This document shows positions 5,229-33,569 of a stretch of DNA of 64,000 nucleotides, one piece after another. The translations under genes and the position numbers were made by a program. The notes under the pieces are model-generated. The model was not told where the DNA came from. It ran no database searches and was given only the letters and a program-made list of their open reading frames with translations. The DNA comes from Solirubrobacterales bacterium. GTDB taxonomy: Bacteria; Actinomycetota; Thermoleophilia; Solirubrobacterales; Solirubrobacteraceae. Each line of letters starts with the position of its first letter. Position 1 is the first letter of the stretch. Location: assembly GCA_019244395.1 (NCBI GenBank), contig JAFASQ010000019.1, positions 1,118-65,117 on the forward strand, read 5' to 3'.

Positions 5229-5274
5229 TTGCGCCTGGCGTTGCATCCGCTATAGCGTTCGCTTACGGCGAACG
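5229..5274 (+). promoter_or_regulatory. Candidate sigma-70 promoter plus palindromic operator in front of the XRE-cupin regulator
   Basis: TTGCGC (5229-5234), TAGCGT (5253-5258) and a perfect 7-bp inverted repeat CGTTCGC-ttacg-GCGAACG (5256-5274) ending 3 bp before GTG 5278. Confidence 0.5.
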
Positions 5275-5277
5275 ATC

Positions 5278-5913
5278 GTGCGAAACGTGCGCAAATCGAG
5301 AACAATCCGGACCGCGGCGGCGAACCTCAACGGCACCGGCGACAGCCGGCTCGCGGGCCTGATGGGGCAGCGGATCCGCCGGTTGCGGACCCAGGCGGGG
5401 AAGACGCTGCGAGCGCAGGCGCGGGAGATCGGAATCGCCGCCTCCTCTCTCTCGGCACTCGAGAACGGGCAGGGTGGCGTCTCGCTTAAACGCCTTCAGC
5501 TGGTCGCCGAGCACTTTGGGCTTCACATCACCGAGCTGCTCGGGGAGCCCGCCGTGGCCGCGAGAGTCGATGGCGTCGAGATCATTCGCAACTGCGCCGC
5601 GACGGTGCCTGGGGTGCAACGGGGGACCGGCGTGCTCTACCAGCTGCTCGGCAGCGGACGTGACCACATCATCCAACCGTACCTCCTGTCGTTCGACCCC
5701 GAGGGCGGTTACGACCGCGACATGATCGGTCATCCCGGTGAGGAGATCGCCTACGTCCTGCACGGCCGGGTCGAGCTGCTGATCGAGGACGAGTGTCACG
5801 CGCTCACCCAGGGCGACCTGATCCGCTTCCGGGCCGATCGGCCGCACGCGTTCCGCAATGCTTCGAGTGTCGGCGTGGCGGCAGTGATCGGGGCGGCGAC
5901 GCCGCCATGGTAG
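5278..5913 (+). CDS. XRE-family HTH transcriptional regulator with C-terminal cupin domain
   Basis: MGQRIRRLR...SSLSALENG HTH_3; cupin HPGEEIAYVLHGRVEL...GDLIRF...PHAFRN. Confidence 0.9.
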   Translation: MRNVRKSRTIRTAAANLNGTGDSRLAGLMGQRIRRLRTQAGKTLRAQAREIGIAASSLSALENGQGGVSLKRLQLVAEHFGLHITELLGEPAVAARVDGVEIIRNCAATVPGVQRGTGVLYQLLGSGRDHIIQPYLLSFDPEGGYDRDMIGHPGEEIAYVLHGRVELLIEDECHALTQGDLIRFRADRPHAFRNASSVGVAAVIGAATPPW

Positions 5914-7972: not shown

Positions 7973-8021
7973 AAACAATCTCGGCACTGGATACGGCCTG
8001 GATGACTTCGCGGATGCGGCA

Positions 8022-8067
8022 CCGGCGCGTGCGCACCGTAGCGCTGCTACTACCGCGCACGCGCCGG
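8022..8067. terminator. GC-rich intra-operon hairpin (attenuator, processing or mRNA-stabilising structure)
   Basis: Perfect 13-bp arms CCGGCGCGTGCGC / GCGCACGCGCCGG with an inner GTAGC/GCTAC stem; no U-tract. Confidence 0.5.
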
Positions 8068-8138
8068 CACCGCGCCGCTCGCCCCCAGACCGCCCCAGCA
8101 CCAATCTTATTTCCCTACGGACCCTAAGGAGCCGCGAG

Positions 8139-9599: not shown

Positions 9600-9663
9600 A
9601 AGGTCTCGATCCCGGGCCTCGAGGTCGGGCAGCAGAAGATCTACAGTTGACCCGCCCCGCGCA

Positions 9664-10509
9664 ATGAGCACAGATCGCACCGTCGACGCCGTCACCAAGG
9701 TGGTCCCCGCCGAGGCCGCCGATTGGCCGCTGGTCCTGGACGGCGAGCTGATGCGCGCCGGCGAGGCGATGATTCCGGCGGGCGACGACGGGCTGATCCG
9801 CGGCGATGGGGCCTTCGATGCGTTTCCGGTACGTGACGGGCATCCGTTCGCCCGCGCGGCCCACCTCGACCGGCTCGAGCGCTCCTGCCGGGCGTTGGCA
9901 CTCGCGTGCCCGCGCGAGCAACTCGAGTCCGACATCGACCTCCTCCTCACCCAGGCGCCTCCCGGCTATACCGTCGTACGCGTGGTCCTCACCCGCGGCG
10001 GCCACCGGATCTCTCGCCTGGAGTCGGCGGGGGATCTCGAGGCGCTGACCAAGCCGGCGCGGCTGCTGCCGGTCACCTACGACCCCTCGGTACTGCTCAA
10101 CGGCGTCAAGTCGCTCTCCTACGCGGCGAACATGCAGGCTTCGCGGCAAGCCCTCGCCGCGGGCTACGACGAGGCGCTGCTGGTCCGCTCGGATCGCGTC
10201 GTGCTCGAGGGGCCGACGTGCTCGATCTTCTGGGTGCGGGCCGGCCGCCTTCAGACGCCGGGGCTCGAGACGGGGATCCTGGCCTCGATCACCCGACGGG
10301 TGATCATGGCGGCGATGCCGGCCGAGGAAGGGAGCTTCCCGCTTGAGGATGCCGTGCGAGCCGAGGAGGCCTTCCTGGTCTCGACAGCGCGGTTGGCGCA
10401 GCCGATCGCGGCGATCGGTGACGTGGTCCTGCCGGCTGCGCCGGGGCCGCAGACGCTACGCGCGCAGGAAACGATCGAGCGCGCGATGGCCGAGGAGACG
10501 ATCGCCTGA
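9664..10509 (+). CDS. Class IV PLP aminotransferase (D-amino acid / branched-chain / ADC lyase family)
   Basis: DDGLIRGDGAFD, HLDRLERS, VKSLSY (PLP lysine), DEALLV, LEGPTCSIF, GILASITR. Confidence 0.9.
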   Translation: MSTDRTVDAVTKVVPAEAADWPLVLDGELMRAGEAMIPAGDDGLIRGDGAFDAFPVRDGHPFARAAHLDRLERSCRALALACPREQLESDIDLLLTQAPPGYTVVRVVLTRGGHRISRLESAGDLEALTKPARLLPVTYDPSVLLNGVKSLSYAANMQASRQALAAGYDEALLVRSDRVVLEGPTCSIFWVRAGRLQTPGLETGILASITRRVIMAAMPAEEGSFPLEDAVRAEEAFLVSTARLAQPIAAIGDVVLPAAPGPQTLRAQETIERAMAEETIA

Positions 10510-10521
10510 CCGCTGGTTCTC

Positions 10522-11649
10522 ATGCGCGCGCGTGACCACGGCATCGTGATCGGCGACGGCACGCCGGGCCCCTCGAACGCAATCACCGATGTGGCCGGGG
10601 TGCGGGTCGGGCACCGGACGCTGATCGAGGGCTCGGGCCCGCTCGTCGTGGGACGCGGCCCGGTCAGGACTGGCGTAACCGTGATCCTGCCACCGGGCAA
10701 TGTATGGGAAGCGCCGGTGTTCGCCGGGCCCCACCGGCTGAACGGCAACGGCGAGATGACCGGCCTGGAATGGGTGCGCGAGTCCGGGATGCTGACCACC
10801 CCGGTCGCGCTCACCAACACCCACAGCGTCGGCGTGGTGCGCGACGCGCTGCTGGCGGAGGTGCTGGCGGCTGACCCCGCCCGAGGATCGGAGTGGTCGC
10901 TGCCCGTGGTGGCCGAGACCTGGGACGGCATGTTGAACGATTTGAACGGCTTTCACGTCCGCCCCGAGCATGTGCACGACGCGTTTGCCGCCGCGGCGGC
11001 AGGCGCGGTCGCGGAGGGCGCGGTGGGCGCCGGCACCGGGATGATCGCCCACGGGTTCAAGGGCGGGATCGGCACCGCCTCGCGCGTGCGGCCCGAGTCC
11101 GAGGGCGGCCACACAGTGGGGGTGCTGGTGCTCGCCAACCACGGACAGCGCCGACGCTTCGCGGTCAACGGCGTCCTGGTCGGCCACGTGCTCGACGAAA
11201 TCCCGCTTCCCGGCGCGCCGGACGTCCCGGGCGACACGACCCGCGCCGGCGCCCCGGCCGGCGCCGGCTCGATCATCGTGATCGTCGCCACCGACGCGCC
11301 GCTGCTGCCCCATCAGTGCACGCGCCTGGCCCAGCGGGCCGGCCTCGGTGTCGCGCGGGTGGGAGGGATCGGCGAGCACACGAGCGGCGACCTGTTCCTG
11401 TGCTTCGCCACGGGCAATCGCGGCATGACGTCGGGCACTATCGACGAGGAGGCGCCACACACCTTTCCGCTCGAGATGTTCGCCGACGCCTACATCGACG
11501 GGCTGTTTGAGGCCGTCGTCGAGGCCACCGAGGAAGCGATCGTCAACGCGGTGATTGCGGCGAAGACAACCGAGGGTCGCGACGGGATCGTGGCGCACGG
11601 CTTGCCCGGAGAGCGGCTCGCGCGCGCGCTGGCGGAAGCGACGCGCTGA
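10522..11649 (+). CDS. DmpA-like L-aminopeptidase/D-esterase (peptidase S58/P1, Ntn-type)
   Basis: NAITDVAGVRVGH, RTGVTVI, NGNGEMTG, EGAVGAGTGM, GFKGGIGTASR, autoprocessing GSIIVIVATDAPL, SGDLFLCF. Confidence 0.9.
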   Translation: MRARDHGIVIGDGTPGPSNAITDVAGVRVGHRTLIEGSGPLVVGRGPVRTGVTVILPPGNVWEAPVFAGPHRLNGNGEMTGLEWVRESGMLTTPVALTNTHSVGVVRDALLAEVLAADPARGSEWSLPVVAETWDGMLNDLNGFHVRPEHVHDAFAAAAAGAVAEGAVGAGTGMIAHGFKGGIGTASRVRPESEGGHTVGVLVLANHGQRRRFAVNGVLVGHVLDEIPLPGAPDVPGDTTRAGAPAGAGSIIVIVATDAPLLPHQCTRLAQRAGLGVARVGGIGEHTSGDLFLCFATGNRGMTSGTIDEEAPHTFPLEMFADAYIDGLFEAVVEATEEAIVNAVIAAKTTEGRDGIVAHGLPGERLARALAEATR

Positions 11650-18145: not shown

Positions 18146-20611
18146 CTACAGGCCGCTCTTGATAGCGGCCTGCTCCGGCCCCGTCGGCCTGGCGCCGCCG
18201 GCGCAAACGCCCGTGTCCACCGGCGGTGGTTTGCCAGGCTTTGCCGTCTGGTCGGCAGCCAGGCGACCGTTCTCGGCTTGCCATAGGGGCGAGCGAGGGC
18301 CGGCCACCTCGTAGTTGGCGTCGATCGCGCGCTGGATCGAGCCTTCATTCAGCCTGGCCGCGCCGATCTCGCTCGGTGTGGCAATTCCGAAGTGGCCCGG
18401 CCAGCAGGCCCATGGCGTCTTGGCGATGTCGACCAGCGGCGTGCTCGCCGCGCGGAAGGCAAAGCGGCCCGAGCCGCATACCACCCAGTCCGCGACCCGG
18501 CCGCGGATGACGCCGAGGGCCGGGGCGTAGCGCAGGCTCTCGCGGCAGTGGGCGTCGTAGGTGGGATGGCCGCCGAGCGCGGCCTGCACGATCGGGTGTG
18601 CGCCGTCGAAGGTGAGCAAGGGGCTGTCCCACGCGTAGTACTCGCCCTCGCTCGAGTGGCGGGCGGTGTACAGCCACAGAGGCTGCTTGGTCTTGGCATC
18701 GAGCAGGACCGTGACGTGTTCCCAGTCACCCTGGTGCAGGTCCGTGTTGACGAGGTCGCCCGCCACCGGCGCGTCGTTCATCAGGCTCGCATCGAACACC
18801 GTCGGGTAGTAGTTGTACGGGTAGAAGAACCAGTACTGGAGCGCGATCAGCTTCCCCTTGATCGCGGTATCCGGGGCGGGCCAGGTCGCGGGATTCGTGT
18901 TCGCCGCGTAGTAGAAATACACCTCGGCAGTGCGCCAGGGATCCAGCTGTCCGGGGTCGGCCAGGCGCTGGCGCAGCGTCGGGAGCCCGCCCAGGCGAGC
19001 CTGCTGGCCGCGGAGGAAGGCCGCGAGCTGGCCTTCCGGGTCCGCGTCCAACGGGGGCGAGACCGGATACCTGAGGAAATCATCCGGGCCGCTACCGGCG
19101 GCGGCAAGTTGGTCCATCGTCGGTGCCGCGCGTGGCTGCTTCGCCGGGCACGACATGGCGGGCAAATGCTGTAAGCAGGTGAGCTGACCGCCGGCACCGC
19201 GATCGGCAAGCAGCGCACCCACTGACACGGGCCAGAACGGATCTGCCACGGTCACGAGGACGGTCGGCTGGTAGCGGCGGGCGAGCGCCGCGATCCGGGG
19301 GCTGGTCTGCTCGATCGGGCGCTCGCCGTCCACGGCCTGACCGCCCGGCGGCCCCGGACCCGCGACCACGCCTTGGCCGAGTTGCGGCGCGGAATACCCG
19401 GCGCTTGGCGTCGGCAGCGGATCGCCGGCGCAGGTGGGCCGGATCGCGCGCACCTCTGGTCTGATCCAGGCCGGCGTGCTCGATTCGACGCCCAAGGCAT
19501 GCAGGAGAACCGTCGGCAGCGAAGGGCGGAGGCCCGAGTCGACCACGAACGGCGTGGTCGTGGTCGCCATCGCTTTCACGGCGGCGGCCGGGATGACCGA
19601 CACCTGCTCGTTCTGGGACGTCGCGTCGGCGAGCGGGGTGCAGGTGACCAAGTAGACGCCCGCGCTGGTTCGCGCCACATAGCCACCCACGCGTACGCCG
19701 GTCGGGGTCGTGACCGTCGTCTGGGAGAAGCTCACCGGAGGCAGGCCGTAGTACGCGATCCCCACCAGCGCGTATACGGTGAGCAGCAGCCAGGGCATCG
19801 GTGAGAGCACGAAGGCCAGGTGGCGCGGGTGCCCGCTCGCCAGCGCGCCCTGGCCGCGCCGGCTCCGGAACTTGCCGTACGCCCGGCCGCCCGAGGCGAT
19901 CCCCGCCCAGGTCAGCAGCAGCACCCCGACCGGAGCCGAGGAGACCAGCGCGACGACGACCACGACAACCCAGAGCACCGCGTGGAGAAAGCGGCTGCCC
20001 CACAGCGGTCCCAGCCAGGCCAGAAGTCCCGACAGGATGACCGTGGTAAGCGCCCAAGGGGCGAGCAGGTCCCACCACGGACCGGGTGGCCACGCCTGGT
20101 CGATCGGCGTCTTCAGCACGCGGGCCGCGGCGAGGCCAAACGTCGCCGAGATCACGCCGACGTTGAAGCCGGCGATCACCCTGACGAAGCGGTCGCCCAC
20201 CGGAGCCTCAAAGTCGGCGTGCGGCCGGAAGCCACGCTTATGCCGTCGGGCGGCGTCGGGGCGACCGTGCTTGATCACGCTGTGCCACTCCGGAGCGCGT
20301 TGGCGCCACGTCCGGGCGTGGATGGCGTAAGCGACCACGCACATCGCGGTGAACACGATCGCCATCACGATGACCAGGCGAAGCCCGGACAGGAACACCA
20401 CGTTGTGATCGACGGCCGGCAGCGAAGCGTCAACCGGCACGCGCGCCGCCGATAGGCGCACCCACGTGATCACCCAGCCGATGACGTAGATGTACGCCGC
20501 CGCCGCGAGGAGGGCGAGGAGCAGCTCGACGATCTCGAGCCAGTCCGCCCGACGGTCACCTACGTCAATCCCGCCCGCCGTCGAAGCAGGCGCAGGATCT
20601 GGCGTGGTCAT
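18146..20611 (-). CDS. Multi-pass membrane protein with a C-terminal Vps62/DUF946-like (NPP1-related) domain
   Basis: About 7-8 hydrophobic helices in the N-terminal 300 aa; C-terminal QYWFFYPYN...HQGDWEHVTVLL...TARHSSEG...HPIVQAALGGHPTY. Confidence 0.7.
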   Translation of the reverse strand: MTTPDPAPASTAGGIDVGDRRADWLEIVELLLALLAAAAYIYVIGWVITWVRLSAARVPVDASLPAVDHNVVFLSGLRLVIVMAIVFTAMCVVAYAIHARTWRQRAPEWHSVIKHGRPDAARRHKRGFRPHADFEAPVGDRFVRVIAGFNVGVISATFGLAAARVLKTPIDQAWPPGPWWDLLAPWALTTVILSGLLAWLGPLWGSRFLHAVLWVVVVVVALVSSAPVGVLLLTWAGIASGGRAYGKFRSRRGQGALASGHPRHLAFVLSPMPWLLLTVYALVGIAYYGLPPVSFSQTTVTTPTGVRVGGYVARTSAGVYLVTCTPLADATSQNEQVSVIPAAAVKAMATTTTPFVVDSGLRPSLPTVLLHALGVESSTPAWIRPEVRAIRPTCAGDPLPTPSAGYSAPQLGQGVVAGPGPPGGQAVDGERPIEQTSPRIAALARRYQPTVLVTVADPFWPVSVGALLADRGAGGQLTCLQHLPAMSCPAKQPRAAPTMDQLAAAGSGPDDFLRYPVSPPLDADPEGQLAAFLRGQQARLGGLPTLRQRLADPGQLDPWRTAEVYFYYAANTNPATWPAPDTAIKGKLIALQYWFFYPYNYYPTVFDASLMNDAPVAGDLVNTDLHQGDWEHVTVLLDAKTKQPLWLYTARHSSEGEYYAWDSPLLTFDGAHPIVQAALGGHPTYDAHCRESLRYAPALGVIRGRVADWVVCGSGRFAFRAASTPLVDIAKTPWACWPGHFGIATPSEIGAARLNEGSIQRAIDANYEVAGPRSPLWQAENGRLAADQTAKPGKPPPVDTGVCAGGARPTGPEQAAIKSGL

Positions 20612-22089
20612 GGCGTGAAGTGCGAAGCGGAGATGCCGACGCGCTCGGTGAACGGACTGTTGAACACACCGCTCGCGTTCAGGCGGTTGTGGACCTGTAG
20701 CCAGTCCGGGTAGCGCGGGTACATCGTCTCGAGAAGCCCTTCGCTCGCGGTCAGGGTGTTGACATGACCCCAGTGAGGTCGTCCGCCCAACTTGCCGAGT
20801 GCCTCCTCGTAGGCCGCGTTGAGCTCGTAGCCGCCATCGCTGCGGCTGAGCTGGATCAGCTCGATCATCATCGTGTCGCGCCCCTGCATCATCGACATGT
20901 AGGCGTCCGAGGCCTTCACGAAACGGAACGAGATCGGCGAGCTCTGATACACGTCGCCGACGCCGCGGAACTCGGCCGCGACGCGGACAATCGCCTCGGC
21001 GGCCTCGATGTGGCGCCCATCCATTGGCACCCCGATCTCGGATGAGTATGCGGGCAGCAGGTTGGCGGCGCCGATGTTCAGCACCTTATAGGAAACCTCG
21101 TCGTACTCCTTCTTGATCAGGGCGCGGATCGCGCTCTCCATCATGCGCGGAGAAAGGTTTGGCTTGAGATCGACGATCAGATTGAGGATGTCGGGCGTGA
21201 GGGGGAAGGCCGAAGCGAGTTCGACGGCCCAGTTGCGGGTGCGCTTGTCGAGAGGCTTGTGTGACGGATTGGTCGTGTAGTTGCGCGTGGTGACCAGGCA
21301 CGGGTAGCGGTGCCTCAGCTCATACGGGCTGAACAGCACCTCGTAGTGGCGGTTCGCGCGCAGCACCTCGCCATCGATCAGGTCGGCCTTGACCTTCTCC
21401 CAGGTGTGAAATTCGCGCACCTCTCTGAGGTAATACTTCGGCTCGACTTCGAGCATGACGGTGCAGATCACGCCCATGCATCCCATTCCGACCGCCACCG
21501 CGTTGAACCAGTGGTCGTCCTGGACCAGCGTTCGCGCGTTCCCGTGGTGCGCCTCGTATGCGCCTCGCTCCGTGGGCCCGTCCGAGGGCTCGATCCGATA
21601 CACCGCACCCCCGGCAGCGACGATGTCCAGCGAGCGGACGAAGTCGTTCAGCGGCCCGAAGGTGATGCCCGAGCCGTGCGTCGAGGTGGAGATCACGCCG
21701 GCGACCGTCTGGTGGTCGTACCCGCCCATGTTCGACAGGGCCAGTCCCCGTCCATCGAGGTAGGCGTTCAGCTCCTTGATGGGGATGCCGCCTTCTGCCC
21801 GGACCAGGTGACGGTCAGTCCACTGCGGACTCAGGAACTCGGGTTCTGTCGCTGCGGGCCGAGCGAGCCCGTTCGTTCTCAGGAGGAACCCGCGGGTAAG
21901 GGCGACGTCAGACCATGAGTGACCCGAGCCGACTGCCCGGACCGTCACGTGATCCTTCTCCGCCTCGCGCACGATTGCGCTGACCGCGTCGATGCTTCCG
22001 GGCTCGTAGGTCCGCAGCGGATCGATCCGCTGGTTGCCGAGGTGGTTCGTCCAGGTCTGCCGGACCTCGAACCCGATCTCGGCCGTCAT
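20608..22089 (-). CDS. FAD-linked sugar 1,4-lactone oxidase (ALO/GULO-like)
   Basis: TWTNHLGNQ, VRAVGSGHSWS (covalent FAD His), QTVAGVISTSTHGSG, GRPHWG; start ATG 22089. Confidence 0.88.
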   Translation of the reverse strand: MTAEIGFEVRQTWTNHLGNQRIDPLRTYEPGSIDAVSAIVREAEKDHVTVRAVGSGHSWSDVALTRGFLLRTNGLARPAATEPEFLSPQWTDRHLVRAEGGIPIKELNAYLDGRGLALSNMGGYDHQTVAGVISTSTHGSGITFGPLNDFVRSLDIVAAGGAVYRIEPSDGPTERGAYEAHHGNARTLVQDDHWFNAVAVGMGCMGVICTVMLEVEPKYYLREVREFHTWEKVKADLIDGEVLRANRHYEVLFSPYELRHRYPCLVTTRNYTTNPSHKPLDKRTRNWAVELASAFPLTPDILNLIVDLKPNLSPRMMESAIRALIKKEYDEVSYKVLNIGAANLLPAYSSEIGVPMDGRHIEAAEAIVRVAAEFRGVGDVYQSSPISFRFVKASDAYMSMMQGRDTMMIELIQLSRSDGGYELNAAYEEALGKLGGRPHWGHVNTLTASEGLLETMYPRYPDWLQVHNRLNASGVFNSPFTERVGISASHFTP

Positions 22090-22133
22090 CGCGGGCCCCG
22101 GCGGGCCATCTCGGCCGTCATCGCGGGCCCCGG
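22076..22133. repeat. 26-bp direct repeat, 32-bp period, at the GMC/ALO gene junction
   Basis: ATCTCGGCCGTCATCGCGGGCCCCGG at 22076-22101 and 22108-22133. Confidence 0.85.
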
Positions 22134-23689
22134 TTGGCCAACAGGCGCTCGACGCCGCGCTCGGCCAGTGCCGCGATCGTCTTGGATGGGTTGACCCCCA
22201 GCGCTGTGGGGACGATCGAGCCATCGAGGATGTACAGCCCGTCGTAGCCGTGCACCCGCCCGCCATCATCGGTCACCCCTTTTGAGGGGTCGTCGGACAT
22301 GGGGCACCCCCCGAGCGGGTGAACGGTGATGAACTTGCCCAGCGGCCCGGCGTCGAGAGCGAAGAACGACTTGGCCTGCGCCGCGGCGGCGAGTTCGCCG
22401 GCCGCCTCGCGCATTCCGGCGAACAGCCCCGCACTGTCTGACTTATCCCAGCGGATGTCGAACGCTCCGAAGACCGGAGTCAGCCGCATCTGCCCGTCGG
22501 CTGCGTCGCGCCCGATCATGAGGAACACGAGGGAGTCGCCAATCGGCTCCTGCTTGAGGTTGACGTTGCGGTGTGTGACGTGCGTGTCGGTGATCCCCAG
22601 CTTGGTAGCGGCGTTCTTGACGTGCAGGACGACGCGGCCCCAACCGGTCAGGGCGCTCACCTGGCGGACGATCGCGAGGAGGCCGCCGAAGTTCCCCGGC
22701 AACCCGCCGTCGGCGACCATGAACCCGCGTTCGTCGGTGTAGTCGATCCGGCTGGTCATCGACGGCCCGTACTCAGTCCGGGCACCGGCGACTCCGGCCG
22801 CCTTCGGATCCAGGGCCAGGGCCAGCGCGTCCCCGTTGCCGGAGAAGCGGCTTCCCAGCGCGGGGGAGAGGCGGCGGAGCCGAGTGCGGTTCTTCAGCAG
22901 CAGGCGACTGCTCCCGAGCGTGCCGGCGGCCAGTACGAGGATCGGCGCCTGCACCGCCCCGTCGATGCGGTACTGCAGATCACGGAAGCCCACACGCCAG
23001 TGCCCGGTGGTCGAGCCCGGAGGATCAATGCGCCGCACCTCGTGCAGCGGGAACACCTCGGCGCCGTGCGCCTCGGCACGCGCGATGTAGGTGATGTCGA
23101 CCGTGTTCTTGGCCAGCACCGGGCAGCCCAAGTCACACCGTCCGAGGTTCTGGCAGCCCTGCTGGAAGACATCGCTGAACGGGTGGCGGCGGCTCTCCCC
23201 GAAGTGCACGGCGAGGGGGAGCCGGGTGGCCGTGCGCCCGGCCCGCTCGGCCATCACGTCGAAGGCGCGGATCTTGGGCAGGTCCGGCTCAGCCGGGGTC
23301 TGGCGCGGTTCGAGCGCGTCCTCGGTGCGGTCGTAATACGGGGCCAGTTCGGCGGCGTCGATCGCGTCGGGCCACGCGGGCTGCTGGAAGACGTCCGCCG
23401 GCGCCCTGAGCTGGACGTTGGCGTACACGAGCGAGCCCCCTCCCACGCCGGCCCCAGTGATCACCGCGAGGTCCTTCATCAGCCGGAGGTCGAGCATCCC
23501 CCCGGGGTTCAGCAGGGGATGCCAGAAGGCCAGCGGCGCCTGCTCGGGCCGGTCCGGGAAGTCACCGGCCCCGAACCGCCGGCCCCGTTCGAGCACGCAG
23601 ACACTGAGCCCTTGTTCGGCCATCCGGCACGCGGTCACTCCGCCACCAAACCCGGAGCCCACGACCACCACGTCGTACGTGCTCTGCAA
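22118..23689 (-). CDS. GMC oxidoreductase, cholesterol-oxidase-like, no evident signal peptide
   Basis: VVGSGFGG Rossmann, GAGVGGGSLVYAN, C..LGRCDLGC, LAAGTLGS, TVHPLGGC, GVNPSKTIAALAER. Confidence 0.9.
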   Translation of the reverse strand: MQSTYDVVVVGSGFGGGVTACRMAEQGLSVCVLERGRRFGAGDFPDRPEQAPLAFWHPLLNPGGMLDLRLMKDLAVITGAGVGGGSLVYANVQLRAPADVFQQPAWPDAIDAAELAPYYDRTEDALEPRQTPAEPDLPKIRAFDVMAERAGRTATRLPLAVHFGESRRHPFSDVFQQGCQNLGRCDLGCPVLAKNTVDITYIARAEAHGAEVFPLHEVRRIDPPGSTTGHWRVGFRDLQYRIDGAVQAPILVLAAGTLGSSRLLLKNRTRLRRLSPALGSRFSGNGDALALALDPKAAGVAGARTEYGPSMTSRIDYTDERGFMVADGGLPGNFGGLLAIVRQVSALTGWGRVVLHVKNAATKLGITDTHVTHRNVNLKQEPIGDSLVFLMIGRDAADGQMRLTPVFGAFDIRWDKSDSAGLFAGMREAAGELAAAAQAKSFFALDAGPLGKFITVHPLGGCPMSDDPSKGVTDDGGRVHGYDGLYILDGSIVPTALGVNPSKTIAALAERGVERLLANRGPR

Positions 23690-25571: not shown

Positions 25572-28500
25572 GTGGGGGAAGCTCTAGAGCTGGCCATACT
25601 TGGGCCGTTCGAGCTGCACATCGACGGCAGGATCCCGGTAGCTCTCGGCGGCCTGCGTCAACGTGCACTGCTCGCGATCCTTGCCTTGCACGCCAACGAA
25701 GTGGTCGCCACCGATCGCCTGGTCGATGAGCTTTGGGGCGAGCACCCACCGGGGTCCGCGACACACACCGTCCAGGTGTTCGTCTCACGACTCCGCCGTG
25801 CGCTGGGTCCCGCCAGCGGCCGTCTGGCGACGGTGCCGCCGGGATACCGCCTACAGCTCGAGCCGGGGGAGGTCGATGCCGACCGCTGTGAGCGCCTCTA
25901 TGCCAAGGCGCGTGCAGCGACCGCGTCTGGCCGGCCGGCCGCGGCGGCCGAACAGCTCGACCAGGCGCTCGCGTTATGGCGCGGGTCGCCACTGGCCGAC
26001 TTCACGTACGAACCGTTCGCACAGGGCGCGATCGCTCAGCTTGAGGAGCTACGGTTCAGCTGCCGCGAGGAGCTGGTCGAAGCGCAGCTGGCGTTGGGGC
26101 GAAACGCCGAGATGGTGCAGGTTCTCGAATCACTGATCGCCGAGCATCCGCTGCGCGAGCGACCGCGAGGCCAGCTGATGTTGGCGCTGTATCGGTGCGG
26201 CCGTCAGGCGGAAGCACTCGATGCCTACCAGCAGGCGCGGCACATGTTGGTCGAGAAGCTCGGGATCGAGCCGAGTGCTGAGCTGCGCGCCCTCGAGCAG
26301 GCAATTCTCCAGCAGAATCCCTCGCTCGGAGCACCGGTGCCGAGCGCTGCGGAGCGACAGAGCGCGGGTCTTGCGATCACGTCCGATCCTCTCACTGAGC
26401 GCGACACAGACCGGGCGATGGCGACCGTCCTCGCACAACACGACAAGCGCCCGGCGACAGCGCCTCCGCGTACCGCCGCGGGCGCCTTCGTTGGTCGCTT
26501 GGATTGCTTGGAGCGGTTGCGCCCACGGTGGGAAGAGAGCAAGGCCGGACGCACCAATATCACTTGGCTGTCCGGTGAAGCGGGCGTCGGCAAGACACGA
26601 CTGGCGACTCAGTTCGCCGAGGAAGTGCAGATCGATGGGGGCGTCGCACTGTACGGGCGCGCCGACGTCGAGAACCTGCTTCCTTACCAGCCCCTGGCGG
26701 AGGTGCTCGACGATCTGATCTCACACGCGGGAGCGCGGTTGATCGAGGCACTGGAGCGTGAACTCGAGACCCTGAGCCGGCCGTTCCCGAATCTCAGGCG
26801 TTACACGCCGGCCGTCCCGGCGGTGGACGACCTCGAGACTATGCGCTACGAGGTATTCGAGGCGGTGGTCTCGGTGCTCGTGGGCAGTTCAGCGCGTAGC
26901 CCGCTTCTGGTCGTGCTCGACGACCTGCAGTGGGCGGACCAACCGACACTGTTGCTCCTGCGCCACGTGCTGCGCCGAGCCGAAGGAGCCCGTCTGCTCG
27001 TCGTGGGGACGTTCCGGGCCGACGAGCCGAATCGGGCGCTGGCCGGCCTGTTGGCCGACTTGCGGCGAGAGCGCCTTTACGACCGGCTGAACCTGGAAGG
27101 GCTCGACGAGGAGGCAACGGCCAAGCTCGTCGCCGATCGCGCCGGGATCCAAACCACGCGGGCCTTCATCCACCGTCTCCACGCCCAGACGGACGGGAAC
27201 CCGTTCTTCATCGAGGAGACGCTCCGCGCGCTCGGCGAGTCCCGTCTCTTCGGACGCGGCGTGGTCGACGCAGATGCCCTCGAGGCGCTCGGCGTACCCG
27301 AAGGCGTGGCCGAGGTAATCACGCGCCGTTCCGAGCAGCTCTCGCCCCTGGCGCAGGAGGTGCTGCTCGTCGCGTCGGTCGTCGGGCCGTCGTTCAACCT
27401 CCGCTTCGTCGAGGATGTGATGCGTTCGGAGCGACGGGACATCGACCAGGAGCTTGACGCGGCGCCCGTGGACGCGATCGCTGCGGCGGCGGACGAGGTT
27501 CTGGCGTCTGGTCTGGCCGTCGAGGTGCCAGATCACTTCGAGGTCCTGACCTTCACCCACGCCCTGGTCCGCGAGGTTCTCTACGCGAGCCTCACCGGTG
27601 GCCGGCGGGTCCGGCTGCACCACCGGGTGGCGGCGGCGCTGGAGCGCCTCTCCGCGCATGCCGAGGTGAATCCGGCTGAGCTGGCACGCCACTTCCTCGA
27701 GGCGAAGCCGGTCGCCGGCCTCGAGCCGGCGCGCCGCTACGCGATCGCCGCGGCCCGGCGTGCGGCCGATCAATTCGCCTACGAGGAGGCGGCAGACCAT
27801 CTTCGCCGGGCGCTCGTGCTGCTCGAAGATAACGACGAAGCAGGGCGCTGCGACGTCCTGCTGGCTCTCGGGCGAGTGCAGTGGCAAATGGGGGACGAGG
27901 AGGCGAGAGGCACGTTCTTGGCCGCGGCCCAGAGCGCGGAGCGCCGCGGCGCCGCGGATCAGCTCGCGAGGGCCGCGAGCGGACTCGCTGAACGATGGTT
28001 CGAAATCACCTACCGGGGGGCGCGTTACAACGATTGGTTACAGAAGGCACTGGACGCGATCGACGACCGCGACAGCCCGCACCGCGTCCTCCTCCTCTCG
28101 CGCCTGGCGGTGAATCTGTCCTACCCGTACGAGGATGCCCATGGCCAGGCGCTGGCTGACGAAGCGGTTGCTATGGCTCGTCGACTCGGCGAGACGAGGA
28201 CACTGTTCGCCGCGCTGCTGGCGCGTCATACGAGTTTGCTCGATGTCCGGCACATCGAAGAGCGCCTCACCCTCGACGAGGAGCTCGCCTCCCTCGCGGC
28301 CGGGCAAGATCAGCTCGCGACGTATGCCCACCAATGGCGGATGTACGACCTACTCGGTATCGGCAAGCTCGACGAAGCTCGCGCCGAGTACGCCGAGCTC
28401 TCACGGATCGCCGACAAGCTCGGCCAGCCGCTGCTGCGGACCATTACGTTCGGCGCGCGAGGTCTGTGGGCTGAGCTCGACGGTGACGAGGAGGAGGCGG

Positions 28501-29141
28501 AGCGCTGGGCCGGCGAGTCACATCGCCAGGCGAACATCGCGCACACCGGAGACGCTGATAGCTCATGGGGCTCGCAGATGTTCGCGTTGCGACGGCGGCA
28601 GGGCCGCGTCGCCGAGCTGACGGCTGTCGCCGAGTCGGTCGTGGCCTCCGGCGGTCGAGCGCTCGGATGGCTCAGCGCGCTCGGGCTCGTCCGGTTGGAC
28701 GCGGGCGACGAGCCCGCGGCGCGGGGGACTTATGAGAAAGAGATCGGCGAGGGCGCGGCGGCGTTGCCGCGTGGGATGTTCTGGCTGACCAGGATGGCGC
28801 TGCTGAGCGAGCTCTGCGTGGGCCTGGGCGATCCCGGCGGCGCTGCGCAACTCTACGCCGAGTTGCTGCCGCATGCCACCCGCTACGTGGTCGTGGCGTA
28901 CTGCAGCTTCTGGGGCCCGGTGGACGGATACCTGGCATCCCTGGCTGCGACCGCCGGAGACACCGCGCTAGCCAAGGAGCACGCGGACGCGGCGCTCGAG
29001 CAGGCGGTGGCGATGGGCGCGCCGGTGATCGTCAGCGAGCTTCAGCGTCGTTGGTCAGACGCGCGGGTCGCCGTTAGCGCGGCATCCGCGGCGGCCGGGG
29101 GGCGATCAGCCCTCCGAGCTCGAGGTACGGTGCGCCGTTGA
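25572..29141 (+). CDS. SARP-family regulator: OmpR-type winged helix + BTAD + STAND/AAA ATPase + TPR
   Basis: LAILGPFEL, RQRALLAIL, ALALWRG.PLA, HPLRER..GQLMLALYRCGRQAEAL, Walker A GEAGVGKT, Walker B VVLDDLQWAD; start GTG 25572. Confidence 0.92.
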   Translation: MGEALELAILGPFELHIDGRIPVALGGLRQRALLAILALHANEVVATDRLVDELWGEHPPGSATHTVQVFVSRLRRALGPASGRLATVPPGYRLQLEPGEVDADRCERLYAKARAATASGRPAAAAEQLDQALALWRGSPLADFTYEPFAQGAIAQLEELRFSCREELVEAQLALGRNAEMVQVLESLIAEHPLRERPRGQLMLALYRCGRQAEALDAYQQARHMLVEKLGIEPSAELRALEQAILQQNPSLGAPVPSAAERQSAGLAITSDPLTERDTDRAMATVLAQHDKRPATAPPRTAAGAFVGRLDCLERLRPRWEESKAGRTNITWLSGEAGVGKTRLATQFAEEVQIDGGVALYGRADVENLLPYQPLAEVLDDLISHAGARLIEALERELETLSRPFPNLRRYTPAVPAVDDLETMRYEVFEAVVSVLVGSSARSPLLVVLDDLQWADQPTLLLLRHVLRRAEGARLLVVGTFRADEPNRALAGLLADLRRERLYDRLNLEGLDEEATAKLVADRAGIQTTRAFIHRLHAQTDGNPFFIEETLRALGESRLFGRGVVDADALEALGVPEGVAEVITRRSEQLSPLAQEVLLVASVVGPSFNLRFVEDVMRSERRDIDQELDAAPVDAIAAAADEVLASGLAVEVPDHFEVLTFTHALVREVLYASLTGGRRVRLHHRVAAALERLSAHAEVNPAELARHFLEAKPVAGLEPARRYAIAAARRAADQFAYEEAADHLRRALVLLEDNDEAGRCDVLLALGRVQWQMGDEEARGTFLAAAQSAERRGAADQLARAASGLAERWFEITYRGARYNDWLQKALDAIDDRDSPHRVLLLSRLAVNLSYPYEDAHGQALADEAVAMARRLGETRTLFAALLARHTSLLDVRHIEERLTLDEELASLAAGQDQLATYAHQWRMYDLLGIGKLDEARAEYAELSRIADKLGQPLLRTITFGARGLWAELDGDEEEAERWAGESHRQANIAHTGDADSSWGSQMFALRRRQGRVAELTAVAESVVASGGRALGWLSALGLVRLDAGDEPAARGTYEKEIGEGAAALPRGMFWLTRMALLSELCVGLGDPGGAAQLYAELLPHATRYVVVAYCSFWGPVDGYLASLAATAGDTALAKEHADAALEQAVAMGAPVIVSELQRRWSDARVAVSAASAAAGGRSALRARGTVRR

Positions 29142-31602
29142 GGTCATGCCGGAGGTCGCTGCTGGCCTCGTAGACCCAACGTCGCACGCGGTTGATACCT
29201 CCGAGGGGTCGATGCTCCCAGCGGCTGTGCCAAGGCGTGAAGATAAGGTTCTCGCCGAAGTTCCTGCGCTGCTGCCTCGTGAAGTGCTGGTGCCGGATGC
29301 GTATTGTCGCCACCTTGCGAAACTGCGATTCGCGCTCGCTCCAGAGAACCCGCGGGTCTTCCACTGGCATCGTGTGCCGATCGGACTGAACCTGCACGAG
29401 GAAGTCGAAAGAGTAATCGGCGTCGCGGGGCCTGAGGGCGGCCTCCATGGCATCCTCGAGCGAGTCGTAATCCGACGCTCGCGCTCCCTTGGGCCCGGCC
29501 GGACGCGTCGGGCGGACCAGGTACTTCACGGCGCGGTCGCGCAGCGCGTACGGCGTCTCGCTCCAATAAGTTACGTCGAGGGGGTTGTCGGGTCTCGTCG
29601 AGATCATCCGCCAGAGGATTCCGAAGCCGCGGCGGTCCCGTTCTAGGAAGAATTCGAGCATGCGGATCTTGCTCTCGACGGCAAGGCCGCGCACGGAGCC
29701 GGTCGCAGTCACTGCCCTTGCGAAGTCAGCGACGGCCAACGCGTTGGGCAGGAAGAACACATCGTGGTTGACCAGGATGAAGTCCTGCGTCTTGCACCAG
29801 CGCTCCTCGGGCAGGATCTTCTCTTCCTCGACGTCGAGGACCTTGATCGCGATCCCCTGGGCATCGGCCTTGGCGTCGGACTGCAAGCCAGAGTGGCTCG
29901 CCGAGAAGCGGATCCAGGCCTCGTACTCCCTGGGCGGAAACTCGAACAAGCCGACGCGCAGGTCCTCCGGCACGTCCTCGACGATGAAACAGGCCTTGAC
30001 GCAGGCGTGCATCTTGGGGTGCTGGCCGCGCAGCATAGGCCGCGTGCTCGCGTAGCTGCGCCGCATTTGCTTCGTCACGAGCCCGACCACTCGCTGTATG
30101 GCCTCGGGCTCCGTCGCCGGGATCTCTTCCAGCTCCATGACCGGGGATGGGTACGCCGAGAGCCGCGCGAGCGCCGCGCGTCCCGGCATGAACAGGTAAT
30201 CGCATCCCCGCGTACGTACGAGCCCTCTATCTCGAGTCACGAAGAACGGAGGCGCTCCGCTGACCGCATACGTAGCCTCGGACCGGCTACCGACGAGGTA
30301 GTCCTGGTGCTCGCCCAGACCGAACGCGTTCCCGTCGTTCAACCACTGTCCCTGCACGACCTCGAACTGGCGCTCGAAGTCGGCGTTGAAGCCGATGAAG
30401 ATGAGCCCACGCTCCTGAGCAGCCGCCACGCTCGGAGCCGCTTCGCCCGGATCATCGGCCGGAGCGTCGTATGGCGGGCCGTAGGGCATTCCGCGCCGGA
30501 TGATGCGATGGCGCGCCGACTCCTGATGATCGTCGCCCAGCAGGTCGCGGGGGTTGGCGCGGCGGATATGCGCGCCGAGGGGACAACGCCGTCCCTTTCG
30601 GTCGTCTCCGTAGCGAAAGTTGTTCTCGACGTGACCGCGACCGGCCGGGTGCAGGTCGTGGCCGCGGCGGGGCCCATGATCAAGCTCAAGCGGCGTCCCG
30701 TCGCGCCAGCGGCCCACGAGCTTCGCTGCCAGCCACTCGATCGCTTCGTCTGGATCGAGGGCGGTCTCGAGCCGCCCCGCATTCAGCTCAGCCTGCGCGT
30801 AGCGCTCGGCCTGTTCGGCCAAGATCCGCCGGAACCCGGCGACGTTCTGCTCGAGCTTGCGATAGACCATGAACGAGCCGTCGTACAGGAGCCAGGTCGC
30901 TCGCTCGGGTAAGGCTTCGCCGTCTTCGTTCGGATATCCGAGGATGAACTCGCCGGCCTTAATGTCACGCCAGGCACCCGTCTCGGACGGCTCCGGGACC
31001 CCTTGGCCGGGCCAGTTGTTCGGCACTCCTTCAACCGCGGGCTGGCCGAACCCGTCGGCGAAGCCGAAGTGCTCGCGCAGGTTGGGTTGGCCGGCCGGCG
31101 TGAGCAGGGCCTCGACGTCCTGTCGATGTAGGCGCCGCGCTGCGTGACAGCGCAGTCGCCCCTCCAGCCACGCAGCTGCTCGCGCCAGCTTGGGGAAGCG
31201 GCGTTCAAACCGGTCGTCGTGCTGCGGGTCTTCGCTCGACGCGAGGAGCACCAGGAGGTGCGTACCCGGATTGCCAAACTCGTCGTCCCATTCGTCGGGG
31301 TTGTCCCCGAGCTGGATTCGCGCCCGCTCCCGGATCGGTTCGCGGAACGCGTCTGGCAACAAGCGGAGCGTGGCCTCGTCGACGTCCAGCCTCTCGAGTC
31401 CCGCATACGTCAGCGCGACATTCAGCGCGATGATCGGCTTCGTCGTCCATTCGCGCGCGGTGGTGATCTCCGGAAGGAGATCACGCAACAGAGCGCGGCC
31501 ACCTGCGCTATCGGGCAGGGTCACGAAGTAGTGACTCCCGGCCGCGAAGTTGTAGCCGCGGAGAATGTTGCCCTGGATGTCGTGGAAGTTCAGACGGCCC
31601 AC
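29074..31602 (-). CDS. DyP-type peroxidase fused to a C-terminal catalase-related heme domain
   Basis: DIQGNILRGY, HFGFADG (GxxDG), GAHIRRANPR, IIRRGMPYG, FEVVQGQW; then RGQHPKMHAC, AWIRFS, DFILVN, SETPY, FTPWH...HRPLGGINRVRRWVY. Confidence 0.88.
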   Translation of the reverse strand: MGRLNFHDIQGNILRGYNFAAGSHYFVTLPDSAGGRALLRDLLPEITTAREWTTKPIIALNVALTYAGLERLDVDEATLRLLPDAFREPIRERARIQLGDNPDEWDDEFGNPGTHLLVLLASSEDPQHDDRFERRFPKLARAAAWLEGRLRCHAARRLHRQDVEALLTPAGQPNLREHFGFADGFGQPAVEGVPNNWPGQGVPEPSETGAWRDIKAGEFILGYPNEDGEALPERATWLLYDGSFMVYRKLEQNVAGFRRILAEQAERYAQAELNAGRLETALDPDEAIEWLAAKLVGRWRDGTPLELDHGPRRGHDLHPAGRGHVENNFRYGDDRKGRRCPLGAHIRRANPRDLLGDDHQESARHRIIRRGMPYGPPYDAPADDPGEAAPSVAAAQERGLIFIGFNADFERQFEVVQGQWLNDGNAFGLGEHQDYLVGSRSEATYAVSGAPPFFVTRDRGLVRTRGCDYLFMPGRAALARLSAYPSPVMELEEIPATEPEAIQRVVGLVTKQMRRSYASTRPMLRGQHPKMHACVKACFIVEDVPEDLRVGLFEFPPREYEAWIRFSASHSGLQSDAKADAQGIAIKVLDVEEEKILPEERWCKTQDFILVNHDVFFLPNALAVADFARAVTATGSVRGLAVESKIRMLEFFLERDRRGFGILWRMISTRPDNPLDVTYWSETPYALRDRAVKYLVRPTRPAGPKGARASDYDSLEDAMEAALRPRDADYSFDFLVQVQSDRHTMPVEDPRVLWSERESQFRKVATIRIRHQHFTRQQRRNFGENLIFTPWHSRWEHRPLGGINRVRRWVYEASSDLRHDLNGAPYLELGGLIAPRPPRMPR

Positions 31603-32246
31603 GAGGCCGACTCCTTGATGTAGGCAGCCTTCAGCGTGTCGTGTCCCCGGTCACCGACGAGGGCATCTTGGTGCTGAAGGACAAACTGAGCAAATCCCTG
31701 CCGCACGTTGATCGCGCGGCTGATGTCCGAAGGAGTGAGATCGGGGAAGGCTGCGTAATACAGGTCAATATCGATCTGGCTATGGCTCAGGTACTTCACG
31801 AAGTGATCTACCTCGTCGACGCCCGGGAAGTTCATGCAGTGCTTCCAGACCGCGTCGCACTCGTCGGGGATGTGATGGGCTAGGTCGCGGAAGAATGTGC
31901 CGGGGAGACATGCTGCGCGGTAGGCCGGCGCGGTCAGGTCGGCGCTGAAGAGCAGATACTGAGATCGGAGCCTCGACGGCCTCTTCGGCGCCCCGGGCCA
32001 GTCGAGGCGGAGCCGGTCGATCACGACCCACCTGGCGAAGTGCACGTCCGGAACCTTGGCCAGCGGGCTTCCACTGCCGAGCTTGAATCCTCGGAGGACA
32101 TCTCTGAGCTCGTCGGACGCGTCGGGCAGGATCGGCGTTATCAGGGTCACGGCGTATGAGTTTCCCCGCCGATTCACTGAGGTCGCCCCCAGCGCCGCCG
32201 CCGCAATCCGACCGACGGCTGCGAGGAGTGAGCTCGGTGTGGTCAC
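31590..32246 (-). CDS. DyP-associated hypothetical protein A (HFAR motif)
   Basis: VHFARWVVID...YLLFSADL...VWKHCMNFP...FVKYL...YYAAFPDLT; 13-bp overlap with the DyP fusion start. Confidence 0.8.
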   Translation of the reverse strand: MTTPSSLLAAVGRIAAAALGATSVNRRGNSYAVTLITPILPDASDELRDVLRGFKLGSGSPLAKVPDVHFARWVVIDRLRLDWPGAPKRPSRLRSQYLLFSADLTAPAYRAACLPGTFFRDLAHHIPDECDAVWKHCMNFPGVDEVDHFVKYLSHSQIDIDLYYAAFPDLTPSDISRAINVRQGFAQFVLQHQDALVGDRGHDTLKAAYIKESASWAV

Positions 32247-32833
32247 AGGTCGCTCTGCAGGTGTGTCACGAGGGCGCGGAGGCGTTCGGCGAACTCATCG
32301 GGATCGAGATCGTGAGCATCTTGGCGAAGCTCCGCGGTGGCCTGCACGATGCGCAGCGCGGACTTCACCATCTTCACGGTGACCTCGGGGTTTCGAACGT
32401 AGTAGTGATCGATGGGAAACTCGTTCTGCAGGATGTAGTGCTTGAACGGGCCGAGCGGCAGTCGCCATGGAAAGCCATACGAGGTGCCCCACAAGGCGCG
32501 CATCCGGCCGGGAAGGGCCTGGACGAACATGTCGATGTACGAGCCAAACGAACCGTTGTAGTTGCTCTCGAAGAGCTGGAGCGTTTGCCGTAGATAATCC
32601 TGAGGCTGCCCGTGATCGGGAAACTCACCGATGACGGCCAAACGCACGAAGTGAATGACCGCGAGCCGATCGACGTTCGTCGCCTGTCCTAACCGTCCAA
32701 GAGCGAAGAAGGCGCGCTGCACGTAGCTGCCGCCCGGGCGCAGGAGGGAGAACACCGTCATGGGTATGGCAAAGCCGTCGCGCTCGATACCGGCGGCTTC
32801 TGGCTGTGGCTGATCCTGCGTAATCGTCGACAA
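32243..32833 (-). CDS. DyP-associated hypothetical protein B (paralogue of A)
   Basis: IHFVRLAVIG...LQLFESNY...LWGTSYGFP...FKHYI...YYVRNPEVT; GTGA overlap with A. Confidence 0.8.
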   Translation of the reverse strand: MSTITQDQPQPEAAGIERDGFAIPMTVFSLLRPGGSYVQRAFFALGRLGQATNVDRLAVIHFVRLAVIGEFPDHGQPQDYLRQTLQLFESNYNGSFGSYIDMFVQALPGRMRALWGTSYGFPWRLPLGPFKHYILQNEFPIDHYYVRNPEVTVKMVKSALRIVQATAELRQDAHDLDPDEFAERLRALVTHLQSDL

Positions 32834-32913
32834 GAATCGCGGAGGGTTAGGCGTTGACCCTAACGAGCGCGCAGGGCGGCGTCTAGATACATCTCGTATT
32901 TTTGACGACCGGC

Positions 32914-32942
32914 TTGCGGCGCCCGAGCTGCGACGCTAGGGT
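32914..32942 (+). promoter_or_regulatory. Leaderless-type sigma-70 promoter
   Basis: TTGCGG-17 nt-TAGGGT-6 nt-ATG 32949. Confidence 0.6.
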
Positions 32943-32948
32943 CGGACG

Positions 32949-33569
32949 ATGGCTGGGGCCATCCGCCGCGGAGACGTCGTGCTGGTCGATGAGCTCGGCC
33001 AGGGCTTGGTGTCGGCGTCCATCGCGCTGGGCGAGTTGCTGCGTTATGGGCGCGGTAGTCCATACACGCAGTGGACCCACAGCGCGATCGTCTGCGATGT
33101 GCCCTTCCAGGATCCGTCGACGATCTCGATCGTCGAAGCACGCGCCGCCACCGGGGTCCGCAGGGCATTGCTCTCGAAGTATGAGAAGCATTACGCAATC
33201 GTGCACACGGATGTCGATGATTGTGACTGGCCGGAGGTCGAGCGCTTCCTCAAGAGCGTGCGGGACGCCCGCGAGAGTTACGACTTTGTCGCCTACGCCG
33301 GTCTCACGCTGTACGCGCTGACCGGCAGCCGCATCTGCATCCAGCGGGCCGGAACGGCGACGTGCGCGGGGCTGGTCGCGGATGCCCTCACGCGGGCGGG
33401 ATTCATCTGGTCGCGCCCGCCATACGCGATGACTCCCGCCGACATCGCAGCCGACCTCGAGGACGGGAAACACACGATCACATCCAAGGTCGTCGACGAG
33501 GGGCAGACGACACTGTGCGGCCGGATGCGACAGCTGGCGAGCACGATGCTCCCGCAGCCCCGCCGTTGA
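32949..33569 (+). CDS. Permuted papain-like amidase (YaeF/YiiX, NlpC/P60 superfamily)
   Basis: RRGDVVL, WTHSAIV (His), IVEA, TCAGLVADAL (Cys), MTPADI. Confidence 0.75.
   Translation: MAGAIRRGDVVLVDELGQGLVSASIALGELLRYGRGSPYTQWTHSAIVCDVPFQDPSTISIVEARAATGVRRALLSKYEKHYAIVHTDVDDCDWPEVERFLKSVRDARESYDFVAYAGLTLYALTGSRICIQRAGTATCAGLVADALTRAGFIWSRPPYAMTPADIAADLEDGKHTITSKVVDEGQTTLCGRMRQLASTMLPQPRR

Follow-up and report, generated by a model that had tools for sequence, protein, structure and literature searches.

A DyP peroxidase–mini-catalase fusion and two paralogous partner genes: one form of a widespread bacterial cassette with possible links to lipid oxidation

We analyzed a 64,000-nucleotide stretch of DNA from a Solirubrobacterales bacterium (GenBank assembly GCA_019244395.1, contig JAFASQ010000019.1, positions 1,118 to 65,117 of the forward strand; hereafter, the window), in which two small paralogous genes, A and B, precede a single gene that fuses a DyP peroxidase to a catalase-related (Cat) domain. 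Our analysis indicates that the architecture of this operon is one of several adopted by a cassette that is widespread and horizontally mobile, of the form 'A/B + DyP + (catalase-related protein or P450)'. The conserved core of the cassette is A/B plus DyP, and the Cat domain is an optional, exchangeable module. We read the operon, with moderate confidence, as a lipid or fatty-acid hydroperoxide oxidizing system and not as an H2O2 scavenger; it most likely acts on unsaturated fatty acids as a substrate class, or on lipids and their hydroperoxides.

The three genes follow one another in the same orientation, on the minus strand: A (32833..32243, an open reading frame of 196 amino acids), B (32246..31590, 218 amino acids) and the fusion gene (31602..29074, a single open reading frame of 842 amino acids). 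The start of B sits on the stop of A in a 4-bp overlap (GTGA), and B in turn overlaps the fusion gene by 13 bp. The G+C content of the operon region (66-70%) matches the remainder of the window. BLASTP showed A and B to be paralogues (E 2e-11, 22% identity), as had been proposed in an initial annotation made by a model from the sequence alone. No transmembrane or signal-like hydrophobic stretch was found in A, B or the fusion protein.

The N-terminal half of the fusion protein (31602..30139, residues 1–488) was confirmed as a complete class V (C-type, former C/D) DyP, which presumably binds heme b and acts as a peroxidase. It matches both Pfam DyP_N and Dyp_perox_C above the cut-off, and TIGR01413 with E 6e-26. 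When a profile of 43 full-length homologues, the set to which residue invariance in the fusion protein refers throughout, was compared with the PDB, the top match was DrDyP (8re3, E 2e-88), followed by class D enzymes of fungi and class C enzymes of bacteria. Foldseek with the AlphaFold2 model of the whole fusion (pLDDT 80.9, pTM 0.84) recovered the same structure (8re3, E 4e-32, TM (target) 0.82), the model showing two ferredoxin-like domains with the DyP fold. The distal Asp D183 (in the GFADG motif), the proximal His H345 and the distal Arg R369/R370 are invariant and line up with the corresponding residues of DrDyP and AauDyPI, which bears out the initial assignment of a complete DyP. Likewise invariant is W420, which lines up with AauDyPI W377, the 'site 5' Trp that marks the surface radical site of class V (PMC9719856). 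Two conventional roles for such a protein were ruled out: that of a secreted lignin peroxidase, by a class V DyP without a signal peptide, and that of an encapsulin cargo, by the class V DyP, the Cat domain at the C-terminus and the lack of a shell gene nearby, the direct flanks of the fusion gene locus being A, B, a SARP regulator and a 206-residue gene. The absence of a signal peptide and of an encapsulin context, remarked on initially, agrees with our finding of no hydrophobic stretch in these proteins and no adjacent shell gene.

The catalase-related domain (30138..29074, residues 489–842 plus the stop codon) begins at Met489, whose codon lies at 30138 with no GGAGG-like sequence ahead of it; the initial annotation had placed the start of a catalase-like domain at about this Met, without a ribosome-binding site. 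On its own, this 354-residue segment matches nothing in Pfam (no PF00199 at E <= 10) or among PDB sequences. A profile of its family, in contrast to the single sequence, matches MAP_2744c, a catalase-related protein of 33 kDa (3e4w, E 6e-15), and reaches true catalases at E 4e-8 and weaker. The same relationship emerged from Foldseek with the fusion model (3e4y, E 8e-13, TM (target) 0.74), with sequence identity to MAP_2744c at ~20-22%; true catalases reach a TM (target) of only ~0.45, owing to their larger size. Only some Cat relatives pass the Pfam Catalase threshold, at 22-34 bits and with partial coverage. The distal His H528, the Asn N612 (in 'LVN') and the proximal R807-x3-Y811 line up with the residues of catalases and MAP_2744c, in line with the initial reading of these motifs; H528, R807 and Y811 are invariant, and Asn at the position of N612 is only the majority residue across the Cat family. 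A Gln directly before the distal His (QH) is nearly invariant among the homologues. The domain lacks the tetramerization and NADPH-binding extensions of true catalases. It is a mini-catalase of the cAOS / MAP_2744c type, as judged from sequence and model, and not a KatE-type monofunctional catalase; a Tyr-ligated heme is predicted for it, and it would be expected to react with organic or fatty-acid hydroperoxides in place of dismutating H2O2. The two-heme protein with two dedicated partners foreseen in the initial annotation is thus supported at the level of folds, residues and gene linkage. The domain searches confirmed both folds and recovered the DyP-Cat fusion in ~45 clusters of ~800-900 amino acids and ~28 of ~1300 amino acids. 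An assembly or frameshift artefact at the junction is ruled out because the fusion is kept in many independent assemblies.

For the partner proteins A and B, searches of Pfam and NCBIfam gave no family, even when hits up to E 5-10 were allowed. A profile built from 65 homologues and searched against 1.84 billion representatives recovered 4,445 clusters at 50% identity, 2,908 of them with E below 1e-10, and many of these clusters are tandem two-domain proteins. The family is marked by a signature H-x-x-R ... F ... W ... P ... Y that is kept in both window paralogues (H61, R64, F88, W115, P122 and Y133 in A; H69, R72, F100, W134, P141 and Y152 in B). The AlphaFold2 model of B (pLDDT 90.7) has a ferredoxin-like core with extra C-terminal helices, and Foldseek gave weak matches only (E 0.02-0.2, probability up to 0.96, TM (target) 0.4-0.6), with no solved relative at a significant level. 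All of these weak matches are dimeric alpha+beta-barrels of the ABM/Dabb type, namely ABM monooxygenases, TcmI and methylmuconolactone isomerase. Thus, A and B represent the first and second members, in this operon, of a large unnamed 'HxxR' alpha+beta-barrel family, with a ferredoxin-like alpha+beta core and extra helices as modeled. They most likely form a heterodimer, which may in turn form a complex with DyP.

IsdG-type heme oxygenases also have the ABM fold, which B resembles weakly, and His, Arg and Trp are conserved in A/B. One could therefore conceive of a system for heme or iron handling, with A/B as IsdG-like heme-binding barrels or heme chaperones and DyP as an EfeB-like deferrochelatase; indeed, the DyP of Deinococcus radiodurans, DR_A0145, was formerly put in the EfeB COG (PMC6300522). 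Yet the window DyP is of class V, and not of the Tat-exported class I EfeB type, it has no signal peptide, and no iron or heme transport genes recur near the 80 related loci described below, so that we regard this explanation as very remote. The same fold matches bear on a second alternative, which we consider rather unlikely: an aromatic or polyketide-type tailoring or degradation system, with A/B as ABM/TcmI-like cofactor-free oxygenases or cyclases. In such a system, DyP would oxidize a quinone- or anthraquinone-like product, the second heme domain would take a peroxide intermediate, and the SARP regulator would control the genes. The sole fold matches of B are to enzymes of this kind and anthraquinones are classic DyP substrates (PMC8197335), but the matches fall short of significance.

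We next examined 80 related loci taken from species-representative genomes, of which 71 carry DyP. In 64 of these 71, A/B lies directly upstream of DyP on the same strand, and these loci span Actinomycetota, Acidobacteriota, Gemmatimonadota, Pseudomonadota, Dormibacterota and others. The Cat domain is fused to DyP in 17 of the 71 DyP loci, encoded by an adjacent gene in 4 and missing from the fetched flanks of the other 50. The initial picture of a three-gene system has to be revised in that conservation attaches to A/B plus DyP, Cat is optional, and the cassette, far from being confined to this genome, is widespread and often plasmid-borne. An unfused triad annotated as 'catalase family protein / hypothetical / Dyp-type peroxidase' occurs on many plasmids and corresponds to DR_A0144-DR_A0145-DR_A0146 in D. 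radiodurans; the 'hypothetical' protein of this triad is a member of the A/B family (hhalign probability 99%).

The components are also joined to each other in multiple ways. Besides DyP-Cat, we found fusions of A with B (L007, L047), of A, B and DyP (P0125, P0128, P0153), of A, B and Cat (P0132) and of Cat with two A/B copies without DyP (P0195, P0206, P0253), as well as complete A-B-DyP-Cat proteins of ~1300 amino acids in Myxococcota (P0043 and others). As Cat is fused, in both orders, to two A/B copies without DyP, A/B are partners of the mini-catalase too. In all 8 of the 8 ~1300-residue forms examined, a two-helix hydrophobic membrane hairpin lies between the A/B copies.

The distribution of the cassette is patchy: among 81 genomes of the window's order, the A/B pair is present in 16 and the strong Cat subfamily in just 2, and none of the 4 other genomes of the window's genus has the pair. 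This pattern and the copies on plasmids mark the cassette as accessory and mobile. The source genome is a 5.7-Mb metagenome-assembled genome whose nearest relatives are Solirubrobacterales-type Actinomycetota, and no second copy of the cassette was found in it. With 580 contigs and 4% contamination, it is larger than the 4 sampled congeneric genomes (3.2-4.9 Mb). Either the cassette is an accessory acquisition or the bin assignment of the contig merits a check.

The link to lipids comes from the fusions of the Cat subfamily and from the gene neighborhoods of the cassette. Relatives of the window Cat domain with 38-42% identity are fused elsewhere to lipoxygenase (PF00305), to a COX-like heme peroxidase/dioxygenase (PF03098) and to patatin, which agrees with the initial comparison to mini-catalases that are linked to lipoxygenases. 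Catalase-related proteins that are partnered with lipoxygenase or 10S-dioxygenase convert fatty-acid hydroperoxides, and in oxylipin pathways a P450 and a catalase-related protein are alternatives after the lipoxygenase or dioxygenase (PMC5617202, PMC13049297). The Cat subfamily is further fused to cytochrome c domains (~940 amino acids) and to SRPBCC/polyketide-cyclase-type lipid-binding domains (~520 amino acids), architectures that were not found in any paper our searches turned up; P0057, P0066, P0082 and P0085, and P0079 and P0097, are such cytochrome c and SRPBCC fusions of the mini-catalase subfamily.

In the cassette itself, loci that lack Cat often carry a P450 gene downstream of DyP (13 loci), and its presence shows no overlap with that of Cat (21 loci; P = 0.006, uncorrected and computed without regard to phylogeny). 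The form that points most clearly to lipids is a six-gene A-B-DyP-patatin-P450-FadL operon found in 4 proteobacterial loci (L034, L014, L023, L025). The first of these, at 4755-11145 on the plus strand of L034, reads A, B, DyP, patatin phospholipase, P450 and FadL/TodX outer-membrane channel. On plasmids of Novosphingobium and Roseomonas, a TetR operon running divergently from the triad includes genes for acyl-CoA thioesterase, 3-hydroxyacyl-CoA dehydrogenase and oleate hydratase, and in D. radiodurans a 3-hydroxyacyl-CoA dehydrogenase gene lies ahead of the triad. A literature search for papers that connect DyP with oleate hydratase found none. Other recurrent neighbors of the cassette are MMPL transporters and GMC oxidoreductases of the cholesterol-oxidase-like kind. 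A separate arrangement is seen on the Methylorubrum populi plasmid pMPPM03 (L088, 2088-8061), where ferredoxin, FAD reductase, P450, catalase-like, A/B and DyP genes lie on one strand behind TetR, so that the mini-catalase is found here beside a P450 and the redox partners of that P450. These neighborhoods also bear on the aromatic or polyketide alternative: while recurring P450, SDR and GMC oxidoreductase neighbors would suit it, the flanks of the 80 loci show no recurrent polyketide synthase, nonribosomal peptide synthetase or other core biosynthetic genes, the cassette stands beside fatty-acid genes on Alphaproteobacteria plasmids and in Deinococcus, and the fusion partners of the Cat subfamily are lipid enzymes.

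Returning to lipid or fatty-acid hydroperoxide oxidation, we propose a soluble cytoplasmic enzyme system of three modules: the A/B pair, the class V DyP and the fused Tyr-ligated mini-catalase. The A/B heterodimeric barrel would bind DyP and either present a hydrophobic substrate to it or switch it on. DyP would react with a peroxide to give compound I and a protein radical at W420, and this radical would oxidize an unsaturated lipid. The mini-catalase would then isomerize, cleave or reduce the resulting or an incoming organic hydroperoxide, with no dismutation of H2O2. Conversion or reduction of organic hydroperoxides is the role of catalase-related allene oxide synthases, of hydroperoxide lyases and of MAP_2744c. 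The system could run either toward the biosynthesis of an oxylipin-like product or toward the detoxification of lipid peroxides or antimicrobial fatty acids. While the folds, catalytic residues, conserved linkage, fusions and lipid-related neighbors are established above, we infer that A/B and DyP form a complex, what they act on, which way the chemistry runs and each of the catalytic steps; the initial statement that the system makes and converts a hydroperoxide is likewise an interpretation, and the cross-linking pathway offered alongside it finds no evidence in our analysis.

A more specific proposal, which we advance only tentatively, is that DyP and the A/B pair act as the radical-forming, oxygenating partner of a hydroperoxide-transforming mini-catalase or P450, in a role like that of a lipoxygenase or COX-like dioxygenase. 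If true, this would constitute a third route, independent and exclusively bacterial, to oxylipin-type lipid products, or to the detoxification of antimicrobial unsaturated fatty acids. A/B would then be new lipid-presenting or DyP-activating subunits, which would explain the apparent inactivity of isolated class C DyPs such as DrDyP.

Plain peroxide scavenging in oxidative stress, with DyP and a small catalase removing H2O2 and A/B serving as assembly or stabilizing factors, appears quite improbable. Reactivity with peroxide is common to both heme folds, and the D. radiodurans genes are listed among oxidative-stress proteins (PMC6300522). H2O2 could be supplied by flavin oxidases, as a GMC and an ALO-type oxidase lie 5-9 kb from the operon, and other copies of the cassette repeatedly have GMC genes nearby. 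However, DR_A0146 has no catalase activity (PMC6300522), DrDyP purified alone is six-coordinate low-spin and inactive at neutral pH, with its substrate not established (PMC10820274), and mini-catalases such as cAOS cannot scavenge H2O2 (PMC5617202). The window Cat domain misses the Pfam Catalase model and is without the extensions of true catalases. One would not expect a plain scavenger to have two dedicated partners, membrane hairpins or fusions to lipases, and scavenging would leave the partners, the hairpins and the patatin, FadL and lipoxygenase links unexplained.

Several observations weigh against lipid or fatty-acid hydroperoxide oxidation. DyP consumes peroxide, and we know of no DyP that makes hydroperoxides. 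In the window, the operon has no patatin, FadL, lipoxygenase or fatty-acid gene beside it, and the link to lipids is through distant relatives only. The exclusivity of Cat and P450 is weakened by its disregard of phylogeny and by the occurrence of both a P450 and a mini-catalase on the one Methylorubrum plasmid. The weak fold matches of A/B are to aromatic or polyketide enzymes, a SARP regulator adjoins the operon, and the neighboring flavin oxidases would also suit a role centered on H2O2.

This regulator, a SARP/AfsR-type STAND protein with Pfam Trans_reg_C, BTAD and AAA_16 domains (25572..29141, plus strand), is encoded convergently with the fusion gene, with an overlap of 68 bp between their 3' ends (29074-29141). 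A tail-to-tail overlap of regulator and DyP-Cat gene is also called in L082 and L083. BTAD/AAA_16 genes occupy the same position in the close relative L082, and AAA_16-type regulators recur in 9 other loci. From its position, the regulator may be tied to the operon, and its adjacency, kept in close relatives, counts in favor of the aromatic or polyketide alternative. Upstream of A, a divergent intergenic region of 115 bp (32834..32948) presumably holds the promoter of the A-B-fusion operon, by its position. A scan of 28800-33100 detected no intrinsic terminator and no sigma-70-like promoter, a search for the sigma-70-type consensus being uninformative for an actinobacterium of 67-70% G+C.

Beyond this region lies a divergent gene of 206 codons with no assigned family (32949-33569, plus strand), whose product finds no family in NCBIfam or in Pfam, where hits up to E 5 were allowed. 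The gene is conserved beside the operon in just the 3 closest loci (L081-L083), and this narrow conservation rules it out as a part of the system. The order of a conserved His ('WTHSAIV') before a Cys ('TATCAGLV') suggests a possible resemblance to permuted NlpC/P60 or LRAT-like hydrolases. Further away, a GMC (cholesterol-oxidase-like) flavin oxidoreductase identified by Pfam (22118..23689, minus strand) is loosely associated with the operon as a possible peroxide source; its identity to a GMC cluster whose members lie close to A-B-DyP at 7 other loci is 37% (E 8e-76). The stretch 18146-23689 on the minus strand holds, on the same strand, this GMC oxidoreductase, the ALO-type FAD lactone oxidase and an 821-residue protein with a weak Vps62-like match.

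Full-text literature searches found no published description of a DyP-catalase fusion or of the A/B family, and no paper on DR_A0144 or on DR_A0144-0146 as a unit. A 2021 review of DyPs mentions neither a catalase fusion nor partner proteins, and a 2022 survey of DyP diversity names PFL and P450 as the only extra domains, without reference to the A/B partners (PMC9719856). Within these searches, the initial view of the system as undescribed holds for the fusion and for A/B, but the unfused neighborhood of DR_A0145 and DR_A0146 had already been noted (PMC6300522). Published work acknowledges the physiological role of bacterial DyPs, and above all of the cytoplasmic ones of class C/V, as an open question (PMC8197335, PMC10820274). 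Our findings indicate that class C/V DyPs come with obligate partners from an unnamed family of ~4,400 clusters and with an exchangeable second heme enzyme, and the cassette thereby offers a route to the real function of bacterial DyP enzymes. The partnership with A/B may also explain why DrDyP is inactive in isolation. Tractable hosts of the cassette include D. radiodurans (DR_A0144-0146), Streptomyces, and the plasmids of Novosphingobium or Roseomonas. Should the operon indeed act on lipids or their hydroperoxides, it would represent a new enzyme class in bacterial oxylipin and lipid-peroxide biology, with relevance to skin and plant commensals that face antimicrobial fatty acids.

Among known systems, the closest in gene content is that of D. 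radiodurans, which has the same gene order in unfused form: an A/B-family protein (243 amino acids), a DyP and a catalase family protein. It differs in having one A/B gene in place of the two paralogues of the window, and in encoding DyP and Cat separately. Its DyP, DrDyP (DR_A0145; 8RE2/8RE3), is the closest solved DyP to that of the window (33-34% identity) and the only member of the triad to have been studied, alone, when it was inactive at neutral pH (PMC10820274). For the Cat domain, the closest solved mini-catalase is MAP_2744c (3E4W/3E4Y); this protein, the coral enzymes cAOS and cHPL, which work with a lipoxygenase, and the Nostoc 10S-hydroperoxide lyase share with it a small core, a distal His (with Asn) and the proximal Arg-x3-Tyr, the active-site residues of cAOS having been described (PMC5617202). 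The window subfamily has Gln, and not the Val or Thr of the cAOS-type enzymes, before the distal His. For A/B, the nearest counterparts are in the ABM/Dabb superfamily (4DN9, 3GZ7, 1TUW, 3HFK), which gave the best but non-significant fold matches of B (E >= 0.02). The pairing of A/B paralogues and their tandem fusions suit a dimeric barrel; they differ from this superfamily in their length of ~200 amino acids, twice the usual size, in the extra C-terminal helices and in their own signature.

In terms of architecture, the coral enzymes cAOS and cHPL, fused to lipoxygenase, and the Nostoc 10S-hydroperoxide lyase, partnered with 10S-DOX, are also paired with an oxidative enzyme, but the partner in the window is a DyP peroxidase and not a dioxygenase. 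The PF00305 or PF03098 dioxygenase of lipoxygenase-cAOS and dioxygenase-CYP fusions is absent from the window protein, which has DyP in its place, and is found in relatives of its Cat domain. A second heme enzyme is likewise joined in the fungal DOX-CYP proteins (Ppo / linoleate diol synthase) and in DyP subclass V4, a P450 - membrane segments - DyP arrangement that was catalogued, but not tested, by Yoshida and Sugano in 2022, who likened it to Ppo-type oxylipin synthases (PMC9719856). V4 is also a class V DyP; it differs in its P450 and membrane segments, whereas the window protein is soluble, with a catalase-related second domain and no P450 domain. What is new here is therefore a catalase-related variant of the scheme in which a two-heme system couples an oxygenase or peroxidase to a hydroperoxide-transforming hemoprotein, with a partner family not previously described. 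The parallel with V4 extends to the cassette at large, as a separate P450 gene downstream of A-B-DyP replaces Cat in 13 of the related loci.

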